Source: an uncultured Verrucomicrobiota bacterium
GTDB lineage: Bacteria; Verrucomicrobiota; Kiritimatiellia; RFP12; UBA1067
Direction of reading: 5' to 3'
Assembly: GCA_946055075.1 (NCBI GenBank)
Contig: CAMGEN010000001.1
Location: forward strand, 17,137 to 81,136
DNA: 64,000 nt
The notes beneath the pieces are model-generated. The model saw only the letters and a program-made list of their open reading frames with translations, was not told the origin of the DNA and made no database searches. Positions within the stretch are counted from its first letter, which is position 1. Each line of letters opens with the position of its first letter. The position numbers were made by a program, and so were the translations under genes. This document shows positions 13,229 through 59,135 of the stretch, piece by piece.

Positions 13229-13247
13229 AGTGAAGAGCGAAGAGTTG
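13229..13247. repeat. short GAAGAGY-family repeat (gtgaagagcgaagagttg) in an intergenic spacer
   Basis: It resembles the ACTCTTC/GAAGAGT heptamer arrays at 25232-25268 and 25716-25753. Confidence 0.4.
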
Positions 13248-14239
13248 TGGAGGTATTAGTATTTCTACAATGGCCTGAGAAGTGTTTTCGGGCGAACGCA
13301 GACGACCTAAAGTATCTCAGGTCGCTCCTGCGGGGGCGGGCGAAGGTGGTTCAAGCCAAGACGGAGAGGTCTTTCTTGGCGGCGCTTCCGCGGGCTACTC
13401 ATGTGATCACTTGGCATTTTAAGTCGGAATGGTACGCGCATGCTCCTAAGCTGAAGCTGGTCGCCACTCCCGCCGCCGGTCGCGAGCTTGTCGATCCTCC
13501 CCCGTCCGTTGTCTGCTCACGGTCTCTGGCTCCGGCCGTTCATCACGGCGGTTTTCACGGGGCGATCATTTCCGAGACTGTACTTGCGTTCGTCCTTGCG
13601 TATGCGCACGGGTTCTTCGCGTCCGAGCCGTTATGGCCGAGAAGTCTTCGGGCGGAGAAGACGATGGATGTTGCAGGCACCAGGGCGGTAATCATAGGCT
13701 ATGGGCGCATCGGCAAGGCCATAGCTGCGCGACTTTCCGATTTCGGGGTGTCGGTGCGCGGCCTTTCCCACTCTGAGTGTGATCTGCTACGTACAAGGTG
13801 CAAGGTGCGGGGTGCAGGGTGTCGTTCCGCACTCCGCGCCCTGCATTCCACACTCTGCTCGGCTGACTGGCTGATCCTCGCGTTGCCGTCCGATACTGGA
13901 ACGGATGATTTTCTCGATGCCAGGCTAATATCGATGCTCTCAAAGAAATGTGTCGTGGTCAATGTGGGGCGTGGCAATGCGGTTGACGAACGGGCATTGC
14001 TCTCGGCGCTTCGGAGCGGCAGGATTGCCGCGGCGTATCTTGACGTGTTCAAGCACGAGCCGACGGTGTTGGCGAAGCATGTCGCCAAACTCTCGAAAGC
14101 GGAGCGAAAATACGATATTGCGGCGATGTCTGCCGCGGAATTGCCTCGGAACTTGATTCGCACTCCGCATGGAAGCGCGTTCTCGCCTGGATATATCAAG
14201 GCGGCGTTTAAGGAGCTGAAGAATGAGTCGCTCATTTGA
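13247..14239 (+). CDS. D-isomer-specific 2-hydroxyacid dehydrogenase family protein (NAD-binding)
   Basis: 330 aa. A Rossmann GYGRIGKAIAARL motif and the catalytic-domain signature NVGRGNAVDERALLSALRSGRIAAAYLDVFKHEP. It contains an unusual Cys-rich insert encoded by a repeat (see 13771-13857). Confidence 0.85.
   Translation: MEVLVFLQWPEKCFRANADDLKYLRSLLRGRAKVVQAKTERSFLAALPRATHVITWHFKSEWYAHAPKLKLVATPAAGRELVDPPPSVVCSRSLAPAVHHGGFHGAIISETVLAFVLAYAHGFFASEPLWPRSLRAEKTMDVAGTRAVIIGYGRIGKAIAARLSDFGVSVRGLSHSECDLLRTRCKVRGAGCRSALRALHSTLCSADWLILALPSDTGTDDFLDARLISMLSKKCVVVNVGRGNAVDERALLSALRSGRIAAAYLDVFKHEPTVLAKHVAKLSKAERKYDIAAMSAAELPRNLIRTPHGSAFSPGYIKAAFKELKNESLI
13771..13857. repeat. GGTGCAG-family degenerate heptamer array with an internal imperfect inverted repeat, inserted in-frame in the dehydrogenase gene
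   Basis: The sequence is ...caaggtgcaaggtgcggggtgcagggtg...gcactccgcgccctgcattccacactctgc. It encodes SHSECDLLRTRCKVRGAGCRSALRALHSTLC where homologues have a short loop. It is related to 21643-21677 and 53753-53797. Confidence 0.6.
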
Positions 14240-21212: not shown

Positions 21213-22364
21213 ATGAGAGCTAAGCGTTGTATTGTCACCGGCGCAGCAGGTTTCATCGGATCGGCGCTCGTTAGGCTGTTGATAAAGGAGACCGGTTGCA
21301 CGGTTCTGGTGATCGACAAGCTTACCTATGCCGGAGTGCCGGAGTCGCTCCGGGAGGCGGGGTTGAATGACGATTGGTGCAAGAAGTTGGCGTCGGCGGA
21401 CGGATTCGATACGGTTCATCAGATCACCGACCGATTGTCGTTCCTTAAGTCCGACATCTGCAATCAGGGGGCGATGGACTTGGCTTTTGAAGTGTTCAAG
21501 CCCGATACCATCTTCCACCTCGCTGCCGAATCCCATGTCGATCGTTCGATTGACGGCCCGGGAGAGTTCATCCGCACCAATGTCACCGGCACGGCGACGC
21601 TGTTGCAGTCGGCACTCAAGTACTGGAAGTCGCTCCCAGATTCTGCACCCTGCACCCCGCACCCCGCACCCTGCACCAAGCGTAGCTTTGTATTCCAGCA
21701 TATCTCGACGGACGAGGTCTACGGCACGCTTGGTGATACCGGTTTCTTCACCGAGAAGACTCCGTATTCGCCGCATTCCCCGTATTCGGCTTCCAAGGCG
21801 GCTTCGGATCATCTCGTGCGCGCCTGGCACGACACCTACGGAATCCCGATCCGGATCACCAACTGCTCTAACAATTATGGGCCTTATCACTTCCCTGAAA
21901 AGCTGATCCCGCTCGTGATTCTCAATTGCCTTGATGGCAAGCCTCTTCCTGTCTACGGTAAAGGCGCAAATATTCGCGACTGGCTTTTCGTCGAGGACCA
22001 CGCGCGGGCGCTGATGCTCGTCAATGAGAAGGGGCGTGACGGCGAGACGTATAACGTCGGCGGTCATAACGAGCGTACCAATCTCGAAGTCGTGAAGACG
22101 ATCTGTGCGATCATGGACGAACTCCGTCCCCGAGCCGACGGTACGAAGTACGAATCTCTCATCACCTATGTAAAGGACCGTCCTGGGCATGATCTCCGTT
22201 ACGCGATCGATCCGACTAGGCTCATGACCGAACTCGGATGGAAGCCGCGCGAGAACTTTGATACTGGCATCCGGCGGACCGTGCAGTGGTATCTCGACAA
22301 CGAGTGGTGGTGGGGTCCGATCCATCGCGGACGCTATACTGGTGAACGCCTCGGCAAAGGGTGA
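21213..22364 (+). CDS. rfbB: dTDP-glucose 4,6-dehydratase
   Basis: 383 aa. An SDR-extended fold with GAAGFIGS, the YxxxK catalytic motif ([11 protein letters not shown]) and an RmlB-type C-terminus. It carries an in-frame repeat insert, [13 protein letters not shown]. Confidence 0.9.
21643..21677. repeat. CTGCACC heptamer array (ctgcaccctgcaccccgcaccccgcaccctgcacc) in-frame in rfbB
   Basis: Five degenerate tandem heptamers. It is the reverse-complement family of the arrays at 13771-13857 and 53753-53797. Confidence 0.65.
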
Positions 22365-23233
22365 TCGATAAACGCGCATATCTGCTGGACGTAAGTGTCC
22401 GTAAGCCGACGGATTCGTTTCTCCGCCGGCTTATTGATCGCTTGGCACTCCTTCGCTATAATGAGCTCTTCCTCTTCTCTATACATCCTTTCTCCAACTC
22501 CAACTCGTCACTCCAACTTCTTTCCGCCTGGGCTAATTTAAAAGGCATCGCTATTCGCACCTTGAATCCGCAAGAGCTGGAAAGCCTTCGCGCGGATGGT
22601 GTCGCCGAGGTGTCCACTCAGGCGTCGCGCTCGCTTTCAGGGCGCCTCGAAGAGATGCGGGAACGGATGGAGAAATGCGAAGCCTACGGACGCGAACACG
22701 GGTGTAGAAGGTTCCTTGTTACAGATTTTTCTGACGGACTCGACTGGCACTCTCCGATAATCTCCCTTCCTGGTATGGTTCTCGGCGGATATTTTGCGTC
22801 TATTGGTGCTAAGGCGGCGAAAATTGATCTTGAGCGCGAAGTCTCACAGTTTTTAGACGCACCGATGGCGGGCTTGCTGTTGCGGCTCGGAACTCTCTAT
22901 CTGCGTGGCGGAGCTTATCGTGAGGATTCCAGCGAATTCTTTAATATCCTCTCAAGCGACATCGGTTATTCACGTCATCCTGGAATTACTGATCATGTAT
23001 TGGAAGAAGTTTCAACGCTTCTTCGTGGTATTATGTCCGAAGCCGAGCGACATCTGGAGCGCAGTGAAACGGCTAAGGAGATACTCTACAGTGCTGTGCT
23101 TCTTGACGCCGCTTGCCACCGTCGTAGCGAAGCTCGTCTTCGTACTGCGAAGGAGGAATTTGTCAAAATGTGGAATCGTCATTTTGAATCGCAAGGACGA
23201 GATTCGTCGGCGGCGAAAATGCCGCGTTTCTGA
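22361..23233 (+). CDS. hypothetical protein (weak GH20-like N-terminal pattern, uncertain)
   Basis: 290 aa. [11 protein letters not shown]...[12 protein letters not shown] resembles the start of GH20 hexosaminidase TIM-barrels, but no catalytic pair was recognised. It contains a CAACTC-type repeat at 22491-22525. Confidence 0.4.
22491..22525. repeat. CCAACTC heptamer-like array inside the coding sequence (encodes [12 protein letters not shown])
   Basis: The sequence tctccaactccaactcgtcactccaacttctttcc is related to the CAACTYC arrays at 29034, 55570 and 55991. Confidence 0.45.
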
Positions 23234-25231: not shown

Positions 25232-25268
25232 AACTCTTCACTCTTCACTCTTAACTCTTAACTTCTTG
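25232..25268. repeat. ACTCTTC heptamer array (taactcttcactcttcactcttaactcttaacttctt), intergenic upstream of ugd
   Basis: Five tandem degenerate heptamers. Confidence 0.6.
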
Positions 25269-26683
25269 TGAACCGCAACATCGTCTGCATCGGAGCCGGT
25301 TACATCGGCGGACCCACCATGGCGGTCATCGCGAAGATGAATCCCGACCGCAAGGTCTACGTCTGCGATATCAACGCGAAGCGCATTGCCGCGTGGAACT
25401 CCAAGAACTGGGCGCTCCCGATCTACGAGCCGGGTCTCGTCGACATCGTCAAGGAGGTCCGCGGGAAGAACCTCTTCTTCACGACGGACATCAAGAAGGC
25501 CGTCCAGAGCTGCGACATCGTCTTCGTCGGCGTCAACACGCCGACCAAGATGTTCGGACGCGGCGCGGGACGCGCGAGCGACCTCCAGTACTGGGAAGCG
25601 ACCGCCCGCGAAATCAAGGACTGGGCGAATGGCGAGAAGATCATCGTCGAGAAGTCCACGCTCCCCGTCCGCACCGCCGCGGCGATGGACGCCATCTTGA
25701 ACGCCAAAGGCGTTCAAGAAGTGAAAAGTGAAGAGTTAAGAGCGAAGAGTTGTCCGACATTCACGGTTCTGAGTAATCCCGAGTTCCTCGCGGAAGGTAC
25801 GGCGATCAAGGATCTGCTGAATCCCGACCGCGTGCTGATCGGCGGACCTCAGACGGCGGCGGGACTGAAGGCCGTTAACGAGCTCATCGCCATCTACCGC
25901 GGCAAGGACGACAAGTGGGTGCCGAGCTACAAGATCCTCACCACGAACGTGTGGTCCGCCGAGCTCACCAAGCTCGCCGCCAACGCCTTCCTCGCCCAGC
26001 GCGTCTCCTCTATCAACGCTATCGCCGGACTCTGCGAGGCGACGGGAGCGGACGTCGACGAAGTCGCCCGCGTGATGGGCGCCGACCACCGAATCGGCCC
26101 CAAATTCCTGAAGGCTGGTCCCGGCTTCGGCGGCAGCTGCTTCAAGAAGGACGTCCTTAATCTCGTGTATCTCTGCGAGTCGTTCGGACTCCACACCGCG
26201 GCGGAATACTGGTCCGGCGTCATCAAGATGAATGACCACCAGCAGGAGCGCATCGTCGCGCGGCTCTTCAAGGCGATGTTTAACACCCTTGCCAACAAGA
26301 AGATCGCGCTTTTCGGCTTCGCCTTCAAGGCGGATACCGGCGATACGCGTGAGACTCCAGCGGGTTATGTCGCGCGGCTTCTCAACGAGGAGCATGTGCG
26401 GCTTACGATCACTGACCCGAAGGCGATCCCCAATGCCCAGGAAGACCTGAAGGATCTCGACTCTACGCCTACGCCTCCGACCTACACCTCCGACCCCTAC
26501 AAGGCGGCGAAGGACGCCGATGCGGTCGTGGTGATGACGGACTGGAAGGAATACGCGGAACTCGACTGGGCCAAGATCTACAAGTCGATGCGCAAGCCCG
26601 CGCTCGTCTTCGACACCCGCAACTGTCTCAATTCCAGCATGCTCAAGAACCTCGGCTTCAACGTCCTCAACATCGGAAAATAA
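25268..26683 (+). CDS. ugd: UDP-glucose 6-dehydrogenase (long, eukaryote-like form)
   Basis: 471 aa with a GTG start. It has GAGYIGGPT, the catalytic Cys region [10 protein letters not shown], and a C-terminal UDP-binding domain. It carries an in-frame insert [14 protein letters not shown] from a repeat. Confidence 0.9.
25716..25753. repeat. GAAGAGT heptamer array (reverse complement of the 25232 family) in-frame inside ugd
   Basis: The sequence gaagtgaaaagtgaagagttaagagcgaagagttgtcc has a reverse complement that matches aactcttcRctcttaactcttcac. Confidence 0.6.
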
Positions 26684-28765: not shown

Positions 28766-30439
28766 ATGAACCTTAACGACATCCTTAAGCGTGCCTTTGA
28801 GAAGGCTTTCCCCGGCGAGGACTTCGCCGGTATTCGCGTACTTCCTGCGACCGATCCGAAGTTCGGTGACTATCAGTGCAATGATGCGCTGAAGCATGCG
28901 AAGCGCATGCACATGAATCCGCGCGAAGTCGCGGCGAAGGTGGTGGAGGCGCTCGACCAGTCGTGCTTCGAGAAGGTCGAGATCGCCGGGCCAGGCTTTC
29001 TCAACCTCACTGTTTCGTCCGACTGGCTGAACGCTCAACTTCTCAACCTCTCAACTTCTCAACATCTTGGAATTCCCCAGTTTGGGGATTCCAAGACCGT
29101 CGTCATCGACTACTCGTCGCCGAACGCCGCGAAGCAGATGCATATCGGGCACATCCGTTCGACCGTGATCGGCTGCGCCATCGACCGCATCTTCCGTTCG
29201 CTCGGATACAAGGTCATCGCCGACAACCATCTCGGCGACTGGGGCACGCAGTTCGGCATCCTCATCAAGGGTTATCGCGAACTCCTCACGCAGGAAGAGC
29301 GTGACAATCTCACCGTCGCGAACCTCGAGAAGTGCTATGTGCTTTCCGCGGCGAAGGCGAAGGAAGAGGACGGCGTCTGGAAAGAGGACTGCAAGCGCGA
29401 ACTTGTGAAGCTGCAGCAGGGCGATGCCGACAACCTCGCGCTCTGGAAGAGGTTCATCGACATCTCCATCGGCGAATTCAACCGCATGTACGACAAGCTT
29501 GGCGTCAAGTTCGACACCTACCGCGGCGAATCGTACTATAACGAGATGATGCCTGGCGTCGTGAAGCGCCTGCAGGAGATGGGTATGGCGGTCGAGTCGG
29601 AAGGCGCGCTCGTCGTCAATCTCGAGGAGGAGAAGCTCGGCGTCGCGATTGTCCGCAAGTCGGACGGCGGATACAACTACACGACGTCCGATCTCGCCTG
29701 CGTCGAATGCCGCGTGAAGGATTACGATCCCGAGCGTATCATCTATGTGACTGACGCGCGGCAGCAGCTTCATTTCAAGCAGTGGTTCAACATCGCCGGC
29801 AAGATGGGCGTGAAGGCGAAGCTTGTCCACGTGCCGTTCGGGCTCATGTCGTATCAAGGCAAGGCGATCTCCACGCGTGAGGGCAACCTCATCAAACTCG
29901 ACGAACTCCTCGCCGAGGCGAAGAAGCGTTCGTTCGACATCGTCAAGGACCGTGGCGGAGACGAGAGGCTCGCCGAACAGATCGGCTACGGCGCGGTGAA
30001 GTATTCCGATCTTTCGCACGATCCGATCACCGACATCGACTTCAGCTGGGACAAGGCGCTGGCGCTTGAGGGCAATTCAGGTCCGTACCTCCAGTACGCC
30101 TATGCACGCGTGTGCTCGCTGATGGACAAGGTCGGGGGTTTGAATGTCGAGAAGCCGGGAAGCTTCTCGGTACAGACTCCGGCGGAAAAGCGCCTTGCAT
30201 TGCAGCTCCTGGAGTTCCCCGGCGCGGTCGTCCGTGCGGCGGAGGCGTACAAGCCGAGCGTCCTCGCGGACTATCTTTTCCAGACCGCGCAGCTCTACTC
30301 GAGCTTCTATCAGAATTCGCCGATCCTGAAGAGCGAAGAGGCGGTCCGCAATGCGCGGCTCCGTCTCTGCGCGCTCTTCGGTTCGGTCCTTTCCAAGGGG
30401 CTGAATCTGCTGGGAATCGAGACGCCGAGTCATATTTGA
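28766..30439 (+). CDS. argS: arginine--tRNA ligase
   Basis: 557 aa. A HIGH motif (PNAAKQMHIGHIRS), a class I fold and a DALR-type anticodon-binding C-terminus. It carries an in-frame insert QLLNLSTSQHLGIPQFGDS encoded by a repeat. Confidence 0.92.
   Translation: MNLNDILKRAFEKAFPGEDFAGIRVLPATDPKFGDYQCNDALKHAKRMHMNPREVAAKVVEALDQSCFEKVEIAGPGFLNLTVSSDWLNAQLLNLSTSQHLGIPQFGDSKTVVIDYSSPNAAKQMHIGHIRSTVIGCAIDRIFRSLGYKVIADNHLGDWGTQFGILIKGYRELLTQEERDNLTVANLEKCYVLSAAKAKEEDGVWKEDCKRELVKLQQGDADNLALWKRFIDISIGEFNRMYDKLGVKFDTYRGESYYNEMMPGVVKRLQEMGMAVESEGALVVNLEEEKLGVAIVRKSDGGYNYTTSDLACVECRVKDYDPERIIYVTDARQQLHFKQWFNIAGKMGVKAKLVHVPFGLMSYQGKAISTREGNLIKLDELLAEAKKRSFDIVKDRGGDERLAEQIGYGAVKYSDLSHDPITDIDFSWDKALALEGNSGPYLQYAYARVCSLMDKVGGLNVEKPGSFSVQTPAEKRLALQLLEFPGAVVRAAEAYKPSVLADYLFQTAQLYSSFYQNSPILKSEEAVRNARLRLCALFGSVLSKGLNLLGIETPSHI
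29034..29094. repeat. CAACYTCT octamer/heptamer array plus an adjacent near-palindrome (ggaattccccagtttggggattcc) in-frame in argS
   Basis: The array caacttctcaacctctcaacttctcaacatcttgg is followed by an imperfect 24-bp palindrome. Confidence 0.6.
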
Positions 30440-31189: not shown

Positions 31190-31192
31190 GTC

Positions 31193-31241
31193 AATTCCCC
31201 ATTCCCCATTCCCTATTCCCCATTCCCCATCCCCATTCCCC
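31193..31241. repeat. CATTCCC heptamer array, 7 copies, immediately upstream of the queD start
   Basis: The sequence cattccccattccctattccccattccccatccccattcccc creates a spurious N-terminal extension in the ORF track (31155). Confidence 0.65.
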
Positions 31242-31658
31242 ATGACCACCGTTACCAAGACCGTCAAGTTCGATGCCGCGCACATCCTCACCAATCATGA
31301 GGGCCTCTGCCGTAATCTTCATGGACATACCTACCGCGTAGACGTCTCCGTCTCCTGTGATGATCCGTTGGCGGAGGGCGGCATGGTCATCGATTTCAAA
31401 GAGTTGAAACGCATTGCAACCGCGGAGATCTGCGACAGGTTCGATCATGCCTTCATCTACAACACCGCTTCCGAGGGCGAGCGCGAAATCGCGGCCGTTG
31501 TTGAGAAGCACGGCATGCGCACGGTTGCACTTCCGTATCGCTCGACGGCTGAGAATCTAGCCAGGCATTTCTTTGAGATACTGACTCCGCTGATTGCCGG
31601 ACTCTCTGCGGTTACGGTTTGGGAGACCGCTGATTCTTCGGCGACTTACCGGGGTTGA
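31242..31658 (+). CDS. queD: 6-carboxy-5,6,7,8-tetrahydropterin synthase (QueD / PTPS family)
   Basis: 139 aa from the ATG at 31242. MTTVTKTVKFDAAHILTNHEGLCRNLHGHTYRV carries the Cx5HxH Zn motif. Confidence 0.8.
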   Translation: MTTVTKTVKFDAAHILTNHEGLCRNLHGHTYRVDVSVSCDDPLAEGGMVIDFKELKRIATAEICDRFDHAFIYNTASEGEREIAAVVEKHGMRTVALPYRSTAENLARHFFEILTPLIAGLSAVTVWETADSSATYRG

Positions 31659-33306: not shown

Positions 33307-34224
33307 GTGAAAGTTAAAATAGTAGATAGAATAGTCGAACTGATTCGGGATACGAGTTCGTCGCTTCCGGAGGATGTCCTCAAGGCCATTCGCTCTGCTT
33401 TTCGTAAGGAAGCGCGCGGTAAAAGTGCCGCGGTCGTGCTGAAGACGATTCTCGATAACTGCGCGCTTGCGAAGCGTGAGTCCACACCGCTTTGTCAGGA
33501 TACCGGTACGCTTGCTTTCTACATCGACGAGTCTCTTAAGCGTAAGGTCACTCCTGCAGTGATCAAGCAGGCTGTTGCCATTGCGACCGAGCGAGGTTAT
33601 CTTCGTAAGAACTGCATTGATTCCGTCACCGGCAGGAGCTATGACGACAACTGCTGCGATGGCGCACCGGTCGTGCACTACGTGCGCGAAATGATGAATG
33701 AGAAATGTGGAATGAGGAATGGCGGAACTGTAACTCTGCTTATGAAGGGCGGCGGGAGTGAGAACATGTCACGGCAGTATTCGCTACCGGATTCGTCGCT
33801 TGGTGCGGGACGCGATCTCGAGGGCGTTCGCAAGTGTATCCTTGACGCGGTCGTGAAGGCTCAGGGGTTCGGCTGCGCGCCTGGTATTCTAGGCGTCTGC
33901 ATCGGCGGGGACCGGGCGACGGCGTACGAGGTCGCGAAAGAGCAGCTGCTGCGTCCGCTCGGGAGCGGAAAGGATTCCGCATCCCCAGTTGGCGGAGTCG
34001 GTTTAGCCGGGGATGCGGAATCCCTTCCGCTCCGTAAGCTTGAGAAACGGATCTTGAAGGAGGCGAACTCGCTGGGGATCGGTCCGATGGGCCTCGGCGG
34101 CAAGACCACGCTACTCGGTGTGAAGATCGCGTCGCGTCCACGCGTTCCGGCATCGTTCTTCGTTACGGTCGCCTACATGTGCTGGGCCTGCCGCCGGCGG
34201 ACGATCGTGGTTCGTGGTTCGTGA
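33307..34224 (+). CDS. class I fumarate hydratase / L(+)-tartrate dehydratase alpha subunit (Fe-S hydro-lyase)
   Basis: 305 aa. It has the CQDTGT and Cys-ligand pattern of the alpha (N-terminal) domain and is a separate polypeptide, as in archaea and anaerobes. Confidence 0.8.
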   Translation: MKVKIVDRIVELIRDTSSSLPEDVLKAIRSAFRKEARGKSAAVVLKTILDNCALAKRESTPLCQDTGTLAFYIDESLKRKVTPAVIKQAVAIATERGYLRKNCIDSVTGRSYDDNCCDGAPVVHYVREMMNEKCGMRNGGTVTLLMKGGGSENMSRQYSLPDSSLGAGRDLEGVRKCILDAVVKAQGFGCAPGILGVCIGGDRATAYEVAKEQLLRPLGSGKDSASPVGGVGLAGDAESLPLRKLEKRILKEANSLGIGPMGLGGKTTLLGVKIASRPRVPASFFVTVAYMCWACRRRTIVVRGS

Positions 34225-34240
34225 TTCGAGGTTCGTGGTG
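34205..34240. repeat. GGTTCGT heptamer array spanning the alpha-subunit stop and the alpha/beta intergenic gap
   Basis: The sequence cgtggttcgtggttcgtgattcgaggttcgtggtg encodes the C-terminal ...RRRTIVVRGS of the alpha subunit. Confidence 0.6.
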
Positions 34241-37270: not shown

Positions 37271-38163
37271 ATGGGCGAAGATCAGTGGGGTAAATATCTG
37301 CGGGCTAAGGAGCCGGGGGTGCGCGAGAAGGCGTACGCCTGGAAGACGGCGTCTTTGAATTCGCGGGACGTATTCGGGACTATGACATCACTAAGGATGA
37401 ATGGGTGCTTGACGGCGATACGGTGCGGTATGGTTCGTCTTATCGCCTGATGGAGATGTTGACGTTTGACATCAAACAAGAACGCGAGTTCTCGTATGTC
37501 GGACTAACCGAGTCGGAAATCATTCGTCACATTTCCCGATTTACATCTAACCTCTGGCAGATTCATGCCTTTGGTGAAGGGAATACGCGCACGACGGGAG
37601 TCTTTGTCATCAAGTATTTGCGGACGCTCGGCTTTGATGTCGCGAATGACGTTTTCGCCGAGAACGCTTGGTATTTCCGTAATGCGCTCGTCAGGGCGAA
37701 CTATACGAACGTGCCGAAGGGGATTGAGGAGACGACGGAATATCTGGAGTTGTTCTTCCGCAATCTGCTGTTAGGCGAGTCGAATGTTTTGCAAAGTCGC
37801 TATTTGCTTGTGGGAGGATGGAAAGGGTCTGACGACCCTACAAGCAACATTATGACCCCCGCAAGTAACGTCGACACCCCCGCAAGTAAAAGCATGACCC
37901 CCACAAGTAATAGCAGTGGAAACTGGGCGTTGTCTAAAGCGGTCAAACGGCTTTTGCTTGTTCTTGGTGATGATGAATTGACGAGAGAGCAGTTGATGAG
38001 GTCTTTGAAGCTCAAGGATCGTAAGAATTTTTCTGAATACTCGTTGGGACCGGCGCTCAAGATCGGTCTTGTCGAGATGACCCAGCCCGACAGTCCGCGC
38101 TCGCCAACACAGCGTTATCGTCTGACCGCCAGCGGTCAAAAGGCGAAGAAGAGCTGCGTATAA
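37271..38163 (+). pseudogene. Fic/DOC-family protein gene with a disrupted N-terminus (frameshift plus probable internal deletion), FGEGNTRT-type Fic motif, C-terminal wHTH
   Basis: The ATG at 37271 opens frame 2, which encodes MGEDQWGKYLRAKEPGVREKAYAWKTA (a classic Fic N-terminus). It then runs into nonsense and a stop near 37448. Frame 1 continues from about 37350 with FEFAGRIRDYDITKDEWVLDGDTV...HAFGEGNTRTTGV...; the ORF track starts this part at GTG 37405. The about 60 aa that normally separate AYAWKTA from F(E/D)G..D.AG are missing. Confidence 0.5.
37836..37915. repeat. three 21-bp tandem repeats inside the Fic gene
   Basis: (a)tgaccccc(g/a)caagtaa... occurs three times and encodes TSNIMTP/ASNVDTP/ASKSMTP. 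Confidence 0.5.
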
Positions 38164-38223
38164 TTTCGATGCCATACGGCAGTCGCTTATTCTCCCCGAT
38201 TTTCCCTCCCCCGAAGTCGGTTC

Positions 38224-38234
38224 TTTGGTATAAT
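38224..38234 (+). promoter_or_regulatory. extended -10 promoter TTTGGTATAAT giving a leaderless transcript for the CARF operon
   Basis: TATAAT is at 38229-38234 and the ATG at 38244, 9 nt downstream, with no SD. The ORF-track start at 38169 lies upstream of the promoter. Confidence 0.5.
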
Positions 38235-38243
38235 AGTGCCGCT

Positions 38244-39380
38244 ATGCGAGTTGATAAACGCACGATTCTGATTGCGGGGATGGGGACATCACCCGCGGTC
38301 CTCACCGAAACGGTGTGGGCGCTTTGCCATCAGAAGAACCCGATGGTGCCGGACGAGATCGTGGTGCTGGTCACGAAGTCTGGCAAGGAGCGGCTTTGCG
38401 ATGAGCTGTTGTCTGGTGAGAAGTCGGTTTGGGGTCAGATGCTTGCCGCGCTAAAGAAAGAAAAGATCAAGATTGATGGCAAATTGATCTTTGGAGATAC
38501 TTCAATCCGTGTTATTCCCGACGAACGCGGCAATGGTATCGCGGACCTTCGTTCTGGCGATGACAATCTTCGTGCGGCGGATTTCATGCTGCAGCAGGTC
38601 CGTCAGTACACCGAATCTCCGGACACGGTGGTGCTGGCGTCTATTGCCGGCGGACGCAAGACGATGAGCGCATTGCTGTTTTCCTGCATGAGCCTGCTGG
38701 GCCGCGAGGACGATAAGGTTTTTCACGTTCTCTTGCCGCCGGAATTTGAAGGCGGCGTTGAACCGCCGATGTACTATCCGGTGAAGGGCGTGACCTACGT
38801 CAATCGTAGGACCAAAATGAAGTACAAGAGCGACAAATACAAGAGCGAGCTGTTCGAGGTTCCGTTCGTCCGTATGCGCGGCTGGTATCAGGAGAAGTTC
38901 AAGACGATTCCGCCGTCTTACCGTACGCTGATCGAAAAGGTGCAGGACGCGGCACCGAAGGCCGTGGTTTATCCGAAGATCGAGATCGACGCGGCAAATG
39001 GCACGGTCAAGCTGAACGGTGCGCACGTCGCTTTGAGTAAGACCAATTTCGCCGCGCTTTATTTGATCGCTAATGGCTGTCCAATGAAAGACCTCCACGC
39101 GAAGCTCGTCGAGCTTCACAACGACCATAGTGACAAGCGCATCGACTGGCTTGACACTTTCCGCGAGGGCTCCCGCTTCGCCCGTATTGATGACATCGAC
39201 GATCTGCGCAAGACACTTTCGGAACTCCGCAAGAAGCTCCAGTCCGCCGGCTTCGTCAACGCCGAAACCCTCGTTCCCCAGCGCGGCAACCCGGTGACGT
39301 TCCCGATGGGGAAGATCAATTGCCTGGACAAGAAACTTAGGGATGTCCGCGGATGTCTTTTATTACGAAGGGACGCCTGA
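38244..39380 (+). CDS. CARF-domain protein with C-terminal winged-HTH-like domain (Csa3-like cyclic-oligonucleotide sensor/regulator)
   Basis: 378 aa from the ATG at 38244. The first strand/loop reads TILIAGMGTSPAVLTETVWAL (CARF GxSP motif). A second CARF signature, VVLASIAGGRKTMSALL, matches the D(L/V)TGGTKxMS sensor loop. The C-terminal part, VKLNGAHVALSKTNFAALYLIANGCPMKDLHAKLV, looks like an HTH. Confidence 0.7.
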   Translation: MRVDKRTILIAGMGTSPAVLTETVWALCHQKNPMVPDEIVVLVTKSGKERLCDELLSGEKSVWGQMLAALKKEKIKIDGKLIFGDTSIRVIPDERGNGIADLRSGDDNLRAADFMLQQVRQYTESPDTVVLASIAGGRKTMSALLFSCMSLLGREDDKVFHVLLPPEFEGGVEPPMYYPVKGVTYVNRRTKMKYKSDKYKSELFEVPFVRMRGWYQEKFKTIPPSYRTLIEKVQDAAPKAVVYPKIEIDAANGTVKLNGAHVALSKTNFAALYLIANGCPMKDLHAKLVELHNDHSDKRIDWLDTFREGSRFARIDDIDDLRKTLSELRKKLQSAGFVNAETLVPQRGNPVTFPMGKINCLDKKLRDVRGCLLLRRDA

Positions 39381-41151: not shown

Positions 41152-42351
41152 ATGGCACGTCCGATGTATGTTAAGGTATCTGACATTCAGAAAGATGACG
41201 ATCAGTATAGAATTTACAACTTACCGCCAGACGCAAAGTATGTTGTTTCCGGTTGCGCGGGGAGTGGCAAGTCATCGCTCGCGTTGTTGTTCCTTGAAAG
41301 AGCCTTGCAAAGTGGTGAGGATGATAATACTCCGAATCAAGTATATTACATTGCGACGGTACATGAACTTGTTGAATGCGTTAGGAAACAGTTTGCTCGC
41401 TTTGCCACTGTTCCTAAATATAATGATTATGCTATAACTGGAGCGGCGTGGGCAGCCGGCAGCATATCTGATTTGCAACGTCGGGGTCAAAATCAGCACG
41501 GACCGTTTTTGATTCGTGGAAGGGAATGTATGAAATGCAATCCGCGTGGGTACAATAATGATTGGATTGATTTGAAAATTAACAAGCAACCCGATTATCT
41601 GCTAATTGATGAGGCGCAGGATTTTGATTTGCCGACACTAAAGAGCTTCGCTTCGTCGGTGAATAAGGGGTGCGTATTTTACGGAGATGATGCACAGAAG
41701 ATAATTGCTAATGGAACAAATTTAGACGACCTTTGCGCGGAGCTTCGAATTCAACGGCATTGTCTGAAGCGGAATTGGCGACTTTCCAAGGAGGTTGCGA
41801 AATTTGCTCAAGAGCTTCCTGGTAAAAAAGCAGATGATGATTTTGTAAGAAGATGCCGCGGAGAATACCAAGAAAAGCCGATTGTTTATGGATGTGCTAA
41901 TGAAGACATGATGGTGCAGTATATTCTGGAACGATGCCAAAAGGCAACAGTGGATGATGATATAGGTATTGTTTTGAGGAGTAATCAACAAATTCATAGA
42001 TGGTATCAGCACTTTAAGAACGTGCTTGGTGATAATATGGTTTCGGCTAGATACAGTTATGATACACTCTCGCCATTTGGAATTCCGACATCGCATTATG
42101 ACTATTTGCGGGAAACGCCTGTGAAAATTGTGCGTTATGAGGATGCAAAGGGACAGCAGTTTCGCGATGTTTATGTAATTGCAGATGATGCACTTATGAA
42201 TGATCCGTTAGGGATGAGTTGCTTTTACGTCGGTGTGACGAGGGCAGAACGCTACTTATATGTGCTGTATCAGGGTGGTAAACCAGCATTCCTTGAGAAC
42301 GTCGATCCTGATGTATACAGAACTTCAGATGTTAAGGAAATCAATTTCTAA
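41152..42351 (+). CDS. compact UvrD/Rep-like superfamily-1 helicase/ATPase
   Basis: 399 aa. Walker A VVSGCAGSGKSS, Walker B/motif II DYLLIDEAQDF, motif III VFYGDDAQKI and motif VI SCFYVGVTRAERYLYVLY. Confidence 0.65.
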   Translation: MARPMYVKVSDIQKDDDQYRIYNLPPDAKYVVSGCAGSGKSSLALLFLERALQSGEDDNTPNQVYYIATVHELVECVRKQFARFATVPKYNDYAITGAAWAAGSISDLQRRGQNQHGPFLIRGRECMKCNPRGYNNDWIDLKINKQPDYLLIDEAQDFDLPTLKSFASSVNKGCVFYGDDAQKIIANGTNLDDLCAELRIQRHCLKRNWRLSKEVAKFAQELPGKKADDDFVRRCRGEYQEKPIVYGCANEDMMVQYILERCQKATVDDDIGIVLRSNQQIHRWYQHFKNVLGDNMVSARYSYDTLSPFGIPTSHYDYLRETPVKIVRYEDAKGQQFRDVYVIADDALMNDPLGMSCFYVGVTRAERYLYVLYQGGKPAFLENVDPDVYRTSDVKEINF

Positions 42352-42356
42352 TAGTC

Positions 42357-44183
42357 ATGAAATACTACTTCCCGACCTCAACGTTGAATTTTGATGCGAT
42401 AGCATCTTCTATGTGCATTATGCCGGCTTCGTTTTACAGAGATGGAGCAGTTGGGTTTTCCCGCTATACGCGGAGCGCGGTTGATCGTGATGATAATAGC
42501 TGCTATTTGTATTCCCGACCAATTACATGGAATCATTCTATGAGTGATTCCGTTGACTATCCCATGCTGGTTGAGATAGAAGATGATAAACTGTCACTTA
42601 TTGGAAGGAAATGTGAGATGACTGGAGATGTTGACGTAATTCGTATTACTTCTCCATATTATTTTACGGCATCGAGTATTGTCACGCGGCGCATTCGGTT
42701 TTTGTTTAGGAATCAGGATGAACTTAAACTGATAGTCAATCGCACTCGGGCTAACGTGGCGGAGTGCAAAAGTCTTGGTGTAGCCGAGGCGTGGGGCGTG
42801 GATAACTTTGCAGTGATTGAAGGTGTTGACAAGCTTGTTGACTTTAACACGCTTAATGGCGGAATGATGTTCACGCAGGAGGATGGCAGTATGTGTCAAC
42901 CAGGAATATGGTCTGACTATGTGTATCAAGACCGGCTCGATGGCGCAAGGGTCGGCTTTAGGGCTGGGCAGTGGTTTCGCGCCATTATCACGGGGAAATT
43001 TATTGACACGATGCGAGAGCCGCTGACGTTTGAAATATGGCGGGATTCGTTGACACCCGAGTTTAATGCGCTTTTGGATATGATTTGCGGGGATGAGAAA
43101 CTCAAGTGGGATGTAAATCGTGATGCGGTTGTGGATTTCTGTGCCAGATGCTGGAAGGAGTGTCTTGCGAAGTCACATGATGAGGCAAGGCATGAAATAT
43201 TGAGATGTATAGCGAGGAGCATTGCCGACACAAGATATGTGTATCCTATAGATAGGATTCAAGATCCAGAAATGCAGGCCTTGGCGTGCTTCGTTGCCGC
43301 TGGGAAGCGAGAGGGGACGCTTGTAAATTTGCTGAAAACAGAACATATTCAGCTTCCTGAACTTGCTTTGTCGTTGCATGGCGCACTTGTTGGATACTCA
43401 ATTATGTCGCGGGCGCTATTTGAGAAAAGAAGTTATATTGACGAGGAAGCGAAATCGGAAGACGCGCCAATGGCACGAGGTGCAGCGAAGCAAAAATCTC
43501 CTGCGATAGATATGCAAGGACAAGAAGCTTCTCTTGGAATAAAGACCCAGGCCAATGTCTCGTGTGAGTCTTCTGGCGGAGATTTACCAGGATGGGCCAG
43601 ACAGATTTGGGAGAATGTCAAGGGTCTCGTTAGTTTCGCCAAGATCAAGGGGAAGAAGCGGGTACAGGTTGAGAAGGCTCTGTTTCAGGCGCTGAGTGAA
43701 TGCAAGGATGAGCGTGCGTTGTTGCGAGTCCTTCCCGGAAAGTATCAAGCTGATGGCTGGGGACGTCGGACTGCGCTTTATAAGGATTTGAAGAACTCAA
43801 TAGAAGTGGCGAAAGCTGGAATGCCAATAGATGGGGATTTGTTCAACCAGTCGAGTATGCTCAAGTCATTCGATTCTCGTTTGTTGATATATGATCAAGG
43901 GTTGATGGAAGAAATAGCAAAGCGATTTGCAAATATTGGAGACGAAAGGCTTCGGCTGTTACGAGACGTTGTGAGAAAGTTTGTTGCGAAATATGTTGCA
44001 GGTTACTACGGGCAACATCCGGATAGATACAAACAGGAAAATTCGGACCTGATTGATCATATGATCAAATGCTTTATTTCGCCAATCACTCCAGATTTGA
44101 ACTTTAAGTTTGAAGGAGATGAGGAAAATTCATTCGTTGCATTTCTCGAAGAACGATATCATTGTAAAAGAAATACGCATTGA
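42357..44183 (+). CDS. large hypothetical protein of the island operon (no recognisable domain)
   Basis: 608 aa, low GC and soluble. No motif was recognised by eye. Confidence 0.5.
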   Translation: MKYYFPTSTLNFDAIASSMCIMPASFYRDGAVGFSRYTRSAVDRDDNSCYLYSRPITWNHSMSDSVDYPMLVEIEDDKLSLIGRKCEMTGDVDVIRITSPYYFTASSIVTRRIRFLFRNQDELKLIVNRTRANVAECKSLGVAEAWGVDNFAVIEGVDKLVDFNTLNGGMMFTQEDGSMCQPGIWSDYVYQDRLDGARVGFRAGQWFRAIITGKFIDTMREPLTFEIWRDSLTPEFNALLDMICGDEKLKWDVNRDAVVDFCARCWKECLAKSHDEARHEILRCIARSIADTRYVYPIDRIQDPEMQALACFVAAGKREGTLVNLLKTEHIQLPELALSLHGALVGYSIMSRALFEKRSYIDEEAKSEDAPMARGAAKQKSPAIDMQGQEASLGIKTQANVSCESSGGDLPGWARQIWENVKGLVSFAKIKGKKRVQVEKALFQALSECKDERALLRVLPGKYQADGWGRRTALYKDLKNSIEVAKAGMPIDGDLFNQSSMLKSFDSRLLIYDQGLMEEIAKRFANIGDERLRLLRDVVRKFVAKYVAGYYGQHPDRYKQENSDLIDHMIKCFISPITPDLNFKFEGDEENSFVAFLEERYHCKRNTH

Positions 44184-45151
44184 TGGATTATAATGGGATG
44201 TTGAAGCCTGTGATTGTATCCGCGAGTCGCTCGACGGATATTCCTGCTTTTTATGCAGATTGGTTCTTGGAGCGGCTGAGGGCGGGATATTGCAATTGGG
44301 TGAATCCGTTTAATCGGGAAGTGTTTCGGGTTTCGTTTGAAGATGTTCGGATGATTGTGTTTTGGTCAAAGAACCCAAAGCCGATGATTGAACGGTTGGA
44401 TGAGCTGGAGGCGCTTGGATTTAAGAATTACTATTTTCAGTTTACACTGAATGACTATGTGCGTGAAGGTCTTGAGCCGAATGTCCCGCCGGTCGAGAAT
44501 CGGATTGAGACGTTTAAGGTCCTTGCGAAGCGAATTGGCAAGGAACGTGTAATCTGGCGATATGATCCGTTGATTCTTTCCGATGATTTATCGGTTGATG
44601 CTCTTCTGGAGCGTATCGCGAGAATAGGCAAGGAGTTGCGTGGGTCAACTGAGAAGCTTATTTTCAGTTTCGCAGATATACAGGATTATCGGAAGGTTGC
44701 TAAAAATCTGGCGGGGACCACTTGTCGCGAATTCACGGCCGCGGAAAAGATTGTGTTTGCCAAAGGGCTGCGCGAGATCAATCTTGATTTGGGGTTGGAA
44801 ATGGCGACTTGCGCGGAGGACATTGATCTTTCTGTATACGGTATTAAGCATAACAAGTGCGTCGATGATGAGCTGATGATGCGCCTGTTCAACACGGATT
44901 CCAAGCTGATGGAGTTTATCGGCGCGGAATACGACATGATTGATGGCTGGTTGATTAAGAAATCCAAGAAGGACAAAGGCCAGCGCAAAGCGTGTGGCTG
45001 CGTGATCAGCAAGGACGTCGGCATGTACAACACTTGTCCGCATCTTTGCAAATATTGCTATGCAAATGCTTCGGATGCTATTGTAATGAGGAATTTTAAG
45101 CATTGCAGTGAACGCCAGTATGACGATCTTCTGGTTTGTGAATTAGGATAA
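44180..45151 (+). CDS. DUF1848-like protein with C-terminal Cys cluster (CxCx12CPHxCxYCYAN)
   Basis: 323 aa. The C-terminal ACGCVISKDVGMYNTCPHLCKYCYANASD is a five-Cys metal/Fe-S-like cluster typical of the DUF1848 family. It overlaps the upstream gene by 4 nt. Confidence 0.5.
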   Translation: MMDYNGMLKPVIVSASRSTDIPAFYADWFLERLRAGYCNWVNPFNREVFRVSFEDVRMIVFWSKNPKPMIERLDELEALGFKNYYFQFTLNDYVREGLEPNVPPVENRIETFKVLAKRIGKERVIWRYDPLILSDDLSVDALLERIARIGKELRGSTEKLIFSFADIQDYRKVAKNLAGTTCREFTAAEKIVFAKGLREINLDLGLEMATCAEDIDLSVYGIKHNKCVDDELMMRLFNTDSKLMEFIGAEYDMIDGWLIKKSKKDKGQRKACGCVISKDVGMYNTCPHLCKYCYANASDAIVMRNFKHCSERQYDDLLVCELG

Positions 45152-49233: not shown

Positions 49234-49875
49234 ATGCGTTTGATTTTTGTGTTGTCGCTGGTTATGTCCGTATTTTGCGGTTGCAGGTATGAACGGGTAA
49301 TCTTGCCAGGAATTCCGTATGCGTCGGAACCGAAAAACGCAGAACTGCTTTATGAAGTTGACGACCTTGCGCTTTTTGCAGGCAAAACGGAATCGGATAT
49401 TGCTTTTAACAAGTCGAATGATTGGCTCCAGCGCAATTCTCTATTCATGCGACGGTGCATGGAATCGGGGCGGGAAGAGTGGCGTCTTATAATGACGGCG
49501 GAAGGCGATTGGAAGCTTGCAGAGGGTATGGGCAAGTGGTGTAATGACCGAGCGAAAGACGCAAGACGGGACTTCTGTGTTATGAAGGCCAGCTTGTCAA
49601 AAGATCGGAAGACGGTCTGGATGGTTTGCGATCCGCACATCGGCACATATTACATCGTCGGTCGGCTCGATCTTAATACAAACACATTTCGGGTGTTGAT
49701 GGATGGAGACACGGCTGAAGAGCAGTCGGATGGTACGATTTTGGTTAAGGGCAAGAAGACGTATCTCAATGATGAGAACGGAGAGTCGCTTGGCGCGGCG
49801 TGGTACGATCTTTGGATGACACCCGATGGTAAAGTCATTCGAAAGACGAAACCCTTGACCGCCGACCAGTTGTAG
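49234..49875 (+). CDS. lipoprotein (duplicated module, copy 1)
   Basis: 213 aa. A lipobox (SVFCGC). The mature part is 100% identical to 52303-52944. Confidence 0.6.
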   Translation: MRLIFVLSLVMSVFCGCRYERVILPGIPYASEPKNAELLYEVDDLALFAGKTESDIAFNKSNDWLQRNSLFMRRCMESGREEWRLIMTAEGDWKLAEGMGKWCNDRAKDARRDFCVMKASLSKDRKTVWMVCDPHIGTYYIVGRLDLNTNTFRVLMDGDTAEEQSDGTILVKGKKTYLNDENGESLGAAWYDLWMTPDGKVIRKTKPLTADQL

Positions 49876-52237: not shown

Positions 52238-52302
52238 GAATGAAAAATCTTATCATCTGGCAATTTATGGGGGGTCTGAAAACAAGACTGATCAGGCATG
52301 TG

Positions 52303-52944
52303 ATGAAACATTATTTATTGGCGTTTATGGTCGCACTGACCACGTGCGGTTGCAGGTATGAACGGGTAATCTTGCCAGGAATTCCGTATGCGTCGGAACC
52401 GAAAAACGCAGAACTGCTTTATGAAGTTGACGACCTTGCGCTTTTTGCAGGCAAAACGGAATCGGATATTGCTTTTAACAAGTCGAATGATTGGCTCCAG
52501 CGCAATTCTCTATTCATGCGACGGTGCATGGAATCGGGGCGGGAAGAGTGGCGTCTTATAATGACGGCGGAAGGCGATTGGAAGCTTGCAGAGGGTATGG
52601 GCAAGTGGTGTAATGACCGAGCGAAAGACGCAAGACGGGACTTCTGTGTTATGAAGGCCAGCTTGTCAAAAGATCGGAAGACGGTCTGGATGGTTTGCGA
52701 TCCGCACATCGGCACATATTACATCGTCGGTCGGCTCGATCTTAATACAAACACATTTCGGGTGTTGATGGATGGAGACACGGCTGAAGAGCAGTCGGAT
52801 GGTACGATTTTGGTTAAGGGCAAGAAGACGTATCTCAATGATGAGAACGGAGAGTCGCTTGGCGCGGCGTGGTACGATCTTTGGATGACACCCGATGGTA
52901 AAGTCATTCGAAAGACGAAACCCTTGACCGCCGACCAGTTGTAG
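52303..52944 (+). CDS. lipoprotein (duplicated module, copy 2) with a different signal peptide
   Basis: A lipobox (ALTTCGC). The mature part is identical to copy 1. Confidence 0.6.
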   Translation: MKHYLLAFMVALTTCGCRYERVILPGIPYASEPKNAELLYEVDDLALFAGKTESDIAFNKSNDWLQRNSLFMRRCMESGREEWRLIMTAEGDWKLAEGMGKWCNDRAKDARRDFCVMKASLSKDRKTVWMVCDPHIGTYYIVGRLDLNTNTFRVLMDGDTAEEQSDGTILVKGKKTYLNDENGESLGAAWYDLWMTPDGKVIRKTKPLTADQL

Positions 52945-52969
52945 GACGAATAGCAAAGAGAGAATGAAA
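52345..52969. repeat. 625-bp perfect direct repeat, copy 2
   Basis: See 49276-49900. Confidence 0.9.
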
Positions 52970-53039
52970 GATCGGAGACTGGTGAATAGGTTCGAGCGAA
53001 GGCGGGCAGGGACTGATTTATGATATAATATTCGTTACT

Positions 53040-55939: not shown

Positions 55940-55990
55940 ACATGGAGCAGTTATGGAGGTAAAGGTTCTGAGAAAGATGAATATCCGCAA

Positions 55991-56062
55991 CTGTTCACTG
56001 TTCAATGATCACTGATCACTTGATTTTCAACTACCAACTATCAACTACCAACTATCAACTTA
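55991..56062. repeat. intergenic composite heptamer array (CTGTTCA x2, TGATCAC x2, CAACTAY x5)
   Basis: The sequence ctgttcactgttcaatgatcactgatcacttgattttcaactaccaactatcaactaccaactatcaactta lies upstream of the second DUF3127 gene. Confidence 0.65.
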
Positions 56063-56065
56063 ATT

Positions 56066-56452
56066 ATGGCACAGATCTATGAATATACTGGCGTCGTCGA
56101 AGAAGTGATGGCGGTCCAGACGTTCTCCAGCGGCTTCACCAAGCGTGACCTCATCATGGGGGACGAGAACAATGCGACCTCGAAGTATCCAAACTACATC
56201 AAGTTCACCTTCAAGAAGGACAACTGTTCGCTGTTGGACGGCATTCAGAAGGGACAGAAGGCGAAGGTGCGCTTCGCGATCGACGGACGCAAGTGGGAGG
56301 GCGGTACGAAGGGTGTTCAGTACTTCGTCGATCTCACTGCGCTCAAGGTTGAGGTCCTTAACGCCGACGGCACGTCGACCGAACCCGTTCCTGCGCCGGC
56401 AGAGCCCGACTTCCCGGAAGACGCCGGCATGGTCGATGACATGCCTTTCTGA
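56066..56452 (+). CDS. DUF3127-family small protein, paralogue 2, SSB-like tail (..VDDMPF)
   Basis: 128 aa, about 40% identical to 45671-46036 over the core (FSSGFTKRDL, FTFKKD, VRFAIDGRKWEGGTKGVQYFVDLTALKVEV). Confidence 0.55.
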   Translation: MAQIYEYTGVVEEVMAVQTFSSGFTKRDLIMGDENNATSKYPNYIKFTFKKDNCSLLDGIQKGQKAKVRFAIDGRKWEGGTKGVQYFVDLTALKVEVLNADGTSTEPVPAPAEPDFPEDAGMVDDMPF

Positions 56453-56540
56453 GTTAGGAAGTAGGAGTTAGGAATTAGGAATGAAGGAATATTAAATTCC
56501 GCAATTCCTAATTCATCATTCCCAATTCACTATTCTCCTC
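56451..56540. repeat. AT-rich GGAATKA repeat cluster with an internal imperfect inverted repeat
   Basis: The sequence gagttaggaagtaggagttaggaattaggaatgaaggaatattaaattccgcaattcctaattcatcattcccaattcac. Its arms, aggaattaggaatga / tcattcc..aattcct, are related to the CATTCCC family. Confidence 0.5.
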
Positions 56541-59011: not shown

Positions 59012-59086
59012 GGGGACTGTCCCCGTTTTTAGGGGGACAGTCCCCTTTTTTGCCGTCTTTTTTACTTGTTTTAAGGGGACAGTCCC
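59012..59086. terminator. three copies of a perfect 13-bp palindrome GGGGAC(A/T)GTCCCC, two followed by T-runs (tandem/bidirectional terminators)
   Basis: ggggactgtcccc at 59012-59024 plus gttttt, ggggacagtcccc at 59033-59045 plus ttttttt, and ggggacagtcccc at 59074-59086. Confidence 0.6.
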
Positions 59087-59135
59087 CATCTGGCATGGTC
59101 TATGCTGATTGTGTGGGCGAAAGGAATAAACTAAC

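Follow-up and report, generated by a model that had tools for sequence, protein, structure and literature searches.

Heptanucleotide repeat arrays within conserved enzyme genes and in spacers of an uncultured Kiritimatiellia bacterium

Tandem arrays of degenerate seven-nucleotide units lie in frame within three unrelated enzyme genes on a continuous stretch of 64,000 nucleotides from an uncultured member of the Kiritimatiellia (contig CAMGEN010000001.1, positions 17,137 to 81,136), hereafter called the window. The first array, GGTGCAA GGTGCGG GGTGCAG GGTGTCG (four units, 13794–13821, + strand), is located in an open reading frame (ORF; 13247–14239) for a D-isomer 2-hydroxyacid dehydrogenase, where it contributes to the peptide ...RCKVRGAGCR..., and is followed by an array of the reverse-complement family, TCCGCAC TCCGCGC CCTGCAT TCCACAC TCTGC (13827–13861, + strand), as its imperfect-hairpin partner. 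The second, CTGCACC CTGCACC CCGCACC CCGCACC CTGCACC (five units, 21643–21677, + strand; 92% matches to the unit, reverse complement GGTGCAG/GGTGCGG), occupies a coil loop of rfbB, the gene of dTDP-glucose 4,6-dehydratase (21213–22364). The third consists of six degenerate GTGCnnn units, GTGCAGG GTGCAGA GTGCGGA GTGCATG CTGTGGA GTGCGGG (53754–53794, + strand), in proS, the gene of a bacterial-type prolyl-tRNA synthetase (53040–54749); it lies in the linker preceding the editing domain and encodes VQGAECGVHAVEC, and the same gene also encodes CxC and CPKC motifs. All three host ORFs are uninterrupted and have strong Pfam matches (2-Hacid_dh_C; GDP_Man_Dehyd/Epimerase; tRNA-synt_2b, tRNA_edit and HGTP_anticodon, respectively). 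A sequence-only reading had reported heptamer arrays of four to six copies that preserve the frame in these conserved genes, and both the sequence and Tandem Repeats Finder (TRF) bear this out. Three GTGCRGR units in a row with at most three mismatches occur 15 times in the window, confined to these three sites, against 0.14 expected from shuffles, which confirms on the scale of the window that the heptamer is over-represented.

According to the same reading, each array contributes extra residues at a position that is a short loop in homologues. This is correct for RfbB, whose loop is 10 amino acids longer (net) than in RmlB of Escherichia coli; in an AlphaFold model (mean pLDDT 81.5) residues 141–159 are coil between a helix (115–140) and a strand (160–166), and the corresponding loop varies in length among solved RmlB structures. 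It is less apt for the other two enzymes, with net gains of about three amino acids in ProRS versus the P. aeruginosa enzyme (about four versus the commonest loop form among relatives) and about four in the dehydrogenase versus 79%-identical relatives; in these two, most of the array sequence replaces a variable loop that was already present, instead of being added to it. Alignment with orthologues showed the inserts to be lineage-specific, as RmlB of E. coli and Salmonella, P. aeruginosa ProRS and, for a further host gene described below, human UGDH do not possess them. The hairpin-capable inverted copy proposed for the dehydrogenase exists as well; its pairing is modest, the arms being 71–75% complementary (75% for 13800–13819 with 13839–13858) and the RNA fold of the arm pair reaching −37.5 kcal/mol versus −31.2 ± 3.1 in shuffles (z = −2.0; 6 of 200 shuffles equally good). 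Assembly artefacts were ruled out, since the rfbB array is present in nine independent assemblies from different samples (L081–L088, L179) and an identical dehydrogenase loop peptide is encoded in four of these. Pseudogenes were ruled out also, as no strain has a disrupted dehydrogenase ORF; gene callers picked differing start codons for ugd and the dehydrogenase in near-identical assemblies, and the shorter dehydrogenase calls reflect start-codon choice alone. A second lineage-specific insertion of about 19 amino acids relative to E. coli RmlB lies at RfbB residues ~48–70 (window 21354–21420); it is not built of heptamers, and residues 53–61 are predicted to be helical.

The three arrays belong to a wider population. 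TRF together with a custom periodicity scan of the 64-kb window with shuffled controls detected about 16 period-7 arrays versus about none in shuffles; the custom scan by itself yielded 10–12 versus at most 0.3, and other periods remained at background, one octamer array excepted. Units other than the GTGCAGG family are ACTCTTC, ATTCCCC/AATTCCC, AATGAGG/TGAGGAA, TCGTGGT, ACTGATC, CAACTAC, TTAGGAA, AGGCAAC and TGCCGCC. Eight of the arrays take up spacers that separate co-directional genes, so that intergenic DNA is enriched per base, and about as many lie in genes, the latter departing from the published pattern. A single GTGCAGG ‘mini-element’, as first proposed, is therefore not what the window holds: that unit is one of several families in a period-7 phenomenon of which half is intergenic.

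Among the further arrays in genes (all on the + strand), AAGTGAA AAGTGAA GAGTTAA GAGCGAA GAGT (25715–25751) is in frame in ugd, the gene of UDP-glucose dehydrogenase, where the loop is 11 amino acids longer than in human UGDH. The spacer before this gene is filled up to its GTG start by an ACTCTTC/ACTCTTA array (25232–25268), and the two ugd arrays are 37-nt reverse complements of each other, 86% complementary and 446 nt apart, the upstream arm taking in the first base of the start codon. Both rfbB and ugd belong to a gene cluster for surface polysaccharide that also contains Poly_export and GNVR/ParA-type genes. In argS (arginyl-tRNA synthetase, 28766–30439) the octamer array, four copies of CTCAACTT (29034–29067), is in frame with zero net length change versus a solved ArgRS. 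The class I fumarate hydratase alpha subunit gene (fumA, 33307–34224) contains an AATGAGG-type array in frame (33690–33721), and five TCGTGGT units (34205–34239) span its stop codon and the spacer before the beta subunit gene (34246). Two arrays, AGGNAAC x3 and TGCCRCC x4 (56884–56955), lie in frame in an inter-domain linker insertion of about 29 amino acids in prmC (56542–57483). The remaining spacer arrays, likewise on the + strand, comprise seven ATTCCCC units (reverse complement GGGGAAT; 31194–31243) filling the spacer up to an ATG at 31244; adjacent ACTGTTC/ACTGATC and CAACTAC/CAACTAT arrays (55990–56060) upstream of a DUF3127 gene; an inverted pair of TTAGGAA-type and AATTCCY-type arrays (56450–56529; arms of 33 nt separated by 5 nt and 76% complementary) in the interval from the DUF3127 gene to prmC; and four TGAGGAA units (61884–61914) in the gap between a response-regulator gene and a histidine-kinase gene, running into the ATG at 61911.

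Units are re-used among these sites. Exact 7-mers are common to 14 pairs among the 16 window arrays compared with 1.9 expected (P < 0.0005), so that the supposed recurrence of one unit family at unlinked loci is indeed above chance. The GGTGCAG family connects four window arrays, and the AATGAGG unit is present in the fumA coding array and in the spacer array at 61884–61914, 28 kb apart. When all sequences covered by the analysis are pooled, a member of the same family lies within 1 kb of an array in inverted orientation in about 18% of cases and in direct orientation in about 19%. ACTCTTC and ATTCCCC, which occupy spacers in the window, are found inside genes in the relative L174, and TCGTGGT of the window fumA end recurs as its complement ACCACGA in the rfbB loop of L089. 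Filtering against stop codons is insufficient as the cause of the shared GTGCAGG unit, since roughly 70% of random heptamers can be estimated to lack stops in all three frames of a given strand, and exact unit sharing is about seven times chance. A scan of 2.9 million viral contigs for three GTGCRGG units returned 17 scattered matches, none linked to this lineage.

Close homologues come from pig-gut and other metagenomes, the named ones being metagenome-assembled genomes (MAGs) of Kiritimatiellia/Kiritimatiellae; an RfbB search of a genome collection, which gave relatives about 60% identical among the matches listed, served for taxonomy and as a control set. The density of period-7 arrays per 100 kb amounts to 15.6 in the window, 21.8 in five relatives 75–79% identical (L171–L175), 31.7 in two Kiritimatiellota MAG contigs, 4.4 in 79 more distant ugd relatives, where periods 8 and 9 are raised too, and 0.59 in the rfbB surroundings of other bacteria (1.35 Mb). 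The window thus exceeds other bacteria about 26 times, and the range over the window, L171–L175 and the Kiritimatiellota MAGs is 26–54 times. Relatives in the Kiritimatiellia/Kiritimatiellota from gut and rumen metagenomes share the same repeat trait.

Across these lineages the same loops are occupied by different units. The rfbB loop holds (ACCACGA)x10, (CCTGCAA/CCTGAAA)x8 or an octamer array, (AATCAAAC)x4, or is free of any insert; the ugd loop comprises six residues (DHAKHx) in most relatives and (GGGGAAC)n or (GAGGGAA)n in several lineages. In proS, six GTGCnnn units stand at the same place in L171–L173 (75–77% identical), that is, in four lineages including the window. The orthologue of the dehydrogenase arm at 13827–13861 (TCCGCAC-type in the window) consists of (TCTTCAC)x4 in L174 and of TCTCCGC units in L175, so that one array has three unit sequences in three lineages, a sign of concerted evolution; the GGTGCRG arm upstream of it is a novelty of the window lineage and absent from L174 and L175, both 79% identical. 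Coding arrays occupy coil loops or inter-domain linkers that are already length-variable among homologues. As orthologous arrays persist with concerted unit changes, they behave like simple-sequence repeats and not like transposons.

The encoded peptides might themselves be under selection, for instance for linker flexibility or, in ProRS, for metal binding by Cys in the loop; in favour of this are the V..A.C pattern and terminal Cys of the proS loop, which are kept in most relatives, and the CxC and CPKC motifs of that gene. However, the same loops encode unrelated peptides across lineages (e.g., PETCNLK in RfbB), and strains 98% identical carry an SG-rich proS allele in place of VQGAEC..., so that we regard this explanation as extremely improbable.

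Among closely related strains the arrays change in length. In eight assemblies 98.3–99.5% identical to the window all indels fall in repeat tracts: the ACTCTTC array at 25233 is 14 nt longer in L082 and L083, and the ATTCCCC array (31191–31235) of ~99%-identical strains shows several insertions of 1–7 nt, one of them equal to 7 nt. The coding arrays at 13794 and 21643 are of constant length in these eight assemblies. The rfbB gene of L179 has eight units versus five, a clean in-frame insertion of 21 nt that adds PHPAPCT, and because of this gain slippage can be said to operate in genes too. Array length shifts by whole units between close strains (+14, 7 and +21 nt), the signature of replication slippage. 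The copy-number variation for which the sequence-only reading had proposed to compare strains is hence real, and with it the tolerance of slippage-prone repeats in conserved, partly essential genes.

The sole intragenic length variant found amounts to three units (21 nt) and keeps the frame, whereas spacers show any unit change. Frameshifted RfbB alleles were absent among 13 near-full-length cluster members (383–390 amino acids) and the nine strain loci read, and no out-of-frame allele occurred among the recovered rfbB, proS and dehydrogenase alleles, all taken from assemblies, not reads. These observations bear on the idea of contingency loci, in which gain or loss of one unit would frameshift a gene and reversibly switch it off. 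The model case is neuO of E. coli K1, a phage-borne accessory gene with heptanucleotide repeats in its 5' coding region, which yields full-length protein at frame-keeping copy numbers alone, three 7-nt units adding one heptad of seven amino acids, and which acts as an on/off switch. The position of rfbB and ugd in a surface-polysaccharide cluster, the usual setting for phase variation, and the variable copy number in rfbB would fit; yet the only rfbB variant is in frame, and in contrast to neuO the window hosts include essential housekeeping genes with no off alleles seen. As proS, argS and prmC also host arrays, and an off state there is expected to be lethal or strongly deleterious, contingency loci are a very unlikely explanation. 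Phase variation and peptide-level selection both fit the data poorly.

A different kind of change is seen in proS. The sister strains L176 and L180 share an allele unlike that of the window. AGTGGTA-like repeats have taken the place of both the proS loop and a spacer located 1.1 kb from it in L176, and the spacer at 55990–56060 is exchanged as a whole for AGTGGTA-type repeats in that strain. The proS gene of L180 (425–2212) is a mosaic, its first ~1000 nt being 90–95% identical to the window and the rest 64–84%, a pattern that points to intragenic recombination between diverged lineages. Trans-specific proS alleles had been considered as evidence of a repeated ‘writing’ of arrays; this argument is weakened, as the recombinant L180 (5' half 90–95% identical) shares the allele by descent. 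Immediately 5' of proS in L176 (7542–8537) lies a gene for a 331-amino-acid protein with a weak match to the IS200-like Y1_Tnp (HUH) domain (26.6 bits, motif PNHFHAL), placed between proS and a homologue of window 52302–52992; the window lacks it at 52992/53015.

The sequence-only reading had envisaged a mobile or slippage-generated family of mini-elements. In the mobile version considered here, the arrays would be copies of a small element, and a dedicated enzyme such as an HUH/Y1 (RAYT-like) transposase, or a templated ‘writer’, would put hairpin-capable heptamer blocks into permissive sites, genes among them. Unit families common to unlinked loci within a genome and to differing loci between species would agree with this, as would the local clustering of same-family arrays in both orientations, the inverted pairs, the paired AGTGGTA-like repeats of L176 and the Y1_Tnp-like gene adjoining its proS. 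REP/BIME elements, mobilised by RAYT (Y1/HUH) transposases, are likewise short, dispersed, hairpin-capable, located between co-directional genes and organised in genome-specific families, although they are single imperfect palindromes with a conserved head and not arrays of tandem units. Unlike these, the window arrays are tandem and without a linked RAYT gene in the window, and a Pfam scan of about 25 window ORFs, a subset of those present, revealed no cognate transposase. The arrays consist of the repeat units alone and vary by single units; neither conserved ends nor fixed length nor target duplications were seen in the flanks, which were read by eye, no systematic search being made. Orthologous arrays persist with concerted changes, the Y1_Tnp match is weak and its gene absent from the window, and the L176 proS allele is common to L180 by descent and recombination. 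Since the flanks read show neither ends nor target duplications and no linked enzyme lies in the window, a transposable mini-element is quite unlikely, and the mobile reading was not upheld.

The spacer arrays invite a further interpretation, namely that the repeats are selected nucleic-acid signals such as unstructured translation leaders, RNA hairpins or terminators, G-quadruplexes/i-motifs or protein-binding sites, in which coding copies would take part, e.g., by pairing of the ugd leader with codons 150–161. Spacer arrays reach start codons at 25268, 31244 and 56066 and overlap that at 61911, the sense strand of five of the eight lacks G as read from the sequence, the complementary 37-nt ugd arms include the first base of the start codon, an inverted pair lies 3' of the DUF3127 gene, and translational or G-quadruplex roles have been proposed for similar repeats (PMC4679880, PMC4692102). 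Against this, the unit sequence and even the presence of an array are not conserved at orthologous positions; a conserved inverted pair of ugd leader and coding region was sought and not found in 79 relatives, many of which have a TATAAT box just 5' of the ATG; a whole spacer has been exchanged between 98–99%-identical strains; and no family in Rfam matched the window at the gathering score. Selected signals thus seem a rather doubtful general cause. Regulatory roles for the spacer arrays are plausible, without support from conservation. Many sequences among L093–L146, and L176, have TGnTATAAT-like boxes ending ~6–12 nt 5' of the ugd or proS ATG, which suggests that leaderless mRNAs or mRNAs with very short leaders may be produced; upstream of ugd and several other genes of the window, heptamer arrays occupy the position of this box.

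Weighing these observations, we consider it likely that the arrays are heptanucleotide simple-sequence repeats of the type described as short tandemly repeated repetitive (STRR) sequences or long simple sequence repeats (LSSRs), filtered by selection to permissive loops and spread by a seeding process that we infer. On this reading a known type of bacterial repeat is seen here in an extreme form within coding regions, and no new kind of mobile element is involved. Units are homogenised within arrays, lineage by lineage, as comparison of the orthologous loci shows, and survival in genes is restricted to permissive loops, frame-preserving lengths and stop-free units, as shown by the locations of the arrays and the variant with three additional units. 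The Cys/Gly/Ala/Pro-rich peptides would be by-products without a function of their own. New arrays may be seeded near to or far from existing ones and in either orientation, possibly when stalled nascent strands that end in repeats switch template or undergo ectopic conversion, the route proposed here; if true, this would account for the small unit vocabulary per genome and for the inverted pairs.

Several points weigh against this explanation. Pure slippage in situ would not lead one to expect a unit to recur at unlinked loci, nor the ugd leader and coding region to match over 37 nt in inverted orientation, and the spread step is deduced rather than observed. Non-triplet repeats in essential genes should pose a frameshift hazard and are usually counterselected, yet they persist here. 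The six units kept in proS across ~75%-identical lineages hint that they are constrained to some degree and not purely neutral. In sister strains the proS loop and a nearby spacer have been exchanged outright instead of changing step by step, and recombination between alleles is therefore needed in addition. Finally, the evidence covers 64 kb of this genome and fragments of its relatives. An active, sequence-templated process in Kiritimatiellota that writes or copies short heptamer and octamer arrays, drawn from a unit vocabulary specific to the genome, into new sites in either orientation, loops of essential genes among them, appears unlikely to us; if true, simple-sequence repeats would here be mobile by means of dedicated machinery, or else replication or repair would have a peculiarity of this lineage, as opposed to passive slippage.

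Heptanucleotide repeats as such have been reported before, and the claim that nothing of the kind had been described holds in part only, as both the over-representation of heptanucleotides in bacteria and occasional arrays in ORFs are published (PMC4679880, PMC4692102). Among long simple-sequence repeats, heptamers show the strongest over-representation in many bacteria, and polymerase slippage was proposed as the cause (Mrazek 2007, as summarised in PMC4679880 and PMC4692102); a published suggestion is that the length of 7 nt corresponds to the stretch of DNA held by the polymerase. Cyanobacterial STRR sequences, GGGGA(T/C)T of Nostoc and GGGAATC of Xanthomonas (PMC4692102) resemble the window arrays in their tandem 7-nt units with few families per genome, in strong length variation among close relatives and in forming some inverted pairs; they lie mostly between co-directional genes near start or stop codons, as the window spacer arrays do, and ATTCCCC/AATTCCC of the window (reverse complement GGGGAAT/GGGAATT) is close to the published Nostoc and Xanthomonas units. 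They differ in that the present host belongs to the Kiritimatiellota, has many unit families beyond G-rich ones and carries about half of its arrays in frame in conserved enzymes. TAACTGA repeats of marine Beggiatoaceae, Cyanobacteria and Bacteroidetes (PMC4679880) also stand directly 5' of start codons, theirs within operons, and some copies lie in ORFs, where they are read in three frames as a peptide with a periodicity of seven amino acids; mobility was raised as a possibility and no mechanism found (PMC4679880). That system has essentially one unit, and its ORF copies are mostly in protein termini or hypothetical proteins (PMC4679880), whereas the window has several units in internal loops of core enzymes and hot spots re-used across lineages. 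The LSSR survey of Mrazek et al. (2007; as summarised in PMC4679880 and PMC4692102) agrees with our data in that heptanucleotides top the over-representation and that load differs greatly between genomes; in that survey, intragenic repeats were reported to favour units in multiples of three, whereas 7- and 8-nt units occur in genes here. In a literature search nothing was found that links Kiritimatiellota with such repeats or that reports recurrent internal-loop arrays in core enzymes, and to this extent the claim of novelty stands. Published heptamers occur in genes less often than expected or only at protein termini (PMC4692102, PMC4679880); new here are the phylum, the multiplicity of units and above all the fact that internal loops of core enzymes are frequently and repeatedly occupied in frame.

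Other features of the window were recorded alongside. A CT-rich low-complexity tract (22480–22520; CTCCAA-like, period 6) lies in ORF 22361–23233, which has no Pfam match, and indels of −4, −3, −1 and +2 nt in other strains total −6 nt, in frame. A 21-nt unit repeated three times (74% matches) in a Fic-family ORF (37852–37915 in 37405–38163) corresponds to a protein repeat of seven amino acids and is not obviously built of heptamers. The palindrome GGGGAC(A/T)GTCCCC occurs three times at 59012–59089, 3' of a gene ending at 58990, two copies being followed by T-runs in the manner of terminators; the same palindrome (GGGGACTGTCCCC) is found inside the ugd coding loop of the relative L164, and small hairpin elements therefore also enter permissive loops. 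Between ~38000 and 46000 GC content drops to 0.44–0.46 versus ~0.56 elsewhere in the window; this island contains genes for Cas_NE0113-family (38169–39380), SF1 helicase-like (41152–42351) and DUF1848 (44180–45151) proteins, two large proteins without Pfam match and a second DUF3127 gene, and is probably an acquired defence-type island. Two paralogous ORFs without Pfam match (49234–49875 and 52240–52944) flank a gene for a 780-amino-acid protein with an FGE-sulfatase domain and represent a local duplication, since both match one L176 gene with 91–92% identity. Nearly all long Pfam-supported ORFs of the window (1–64000) lie on the + strand, and GC skew stays positive over its whole length with a monotonic climb in cumulative skew, consistent with one long co-oriented leading-strand segment.

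The findings extend the bacterial preference for 7-nt repeats to a poorly studied phylum of gut and rumen, and indicate that non-triplet repeats can live stably in essential enzymes, given permissive loops and steps of three units. The arrays enlarge and diversify protein loops even within a species, as the two proS alleles and the five versus eight units of rfbB illustrate, and they mark flexible sites of their host enzymes; they can also mislead alignment and strain typing. With their re-used units and inverted pairs, they offer a tractable system for the question of how simple repeats seed new places.

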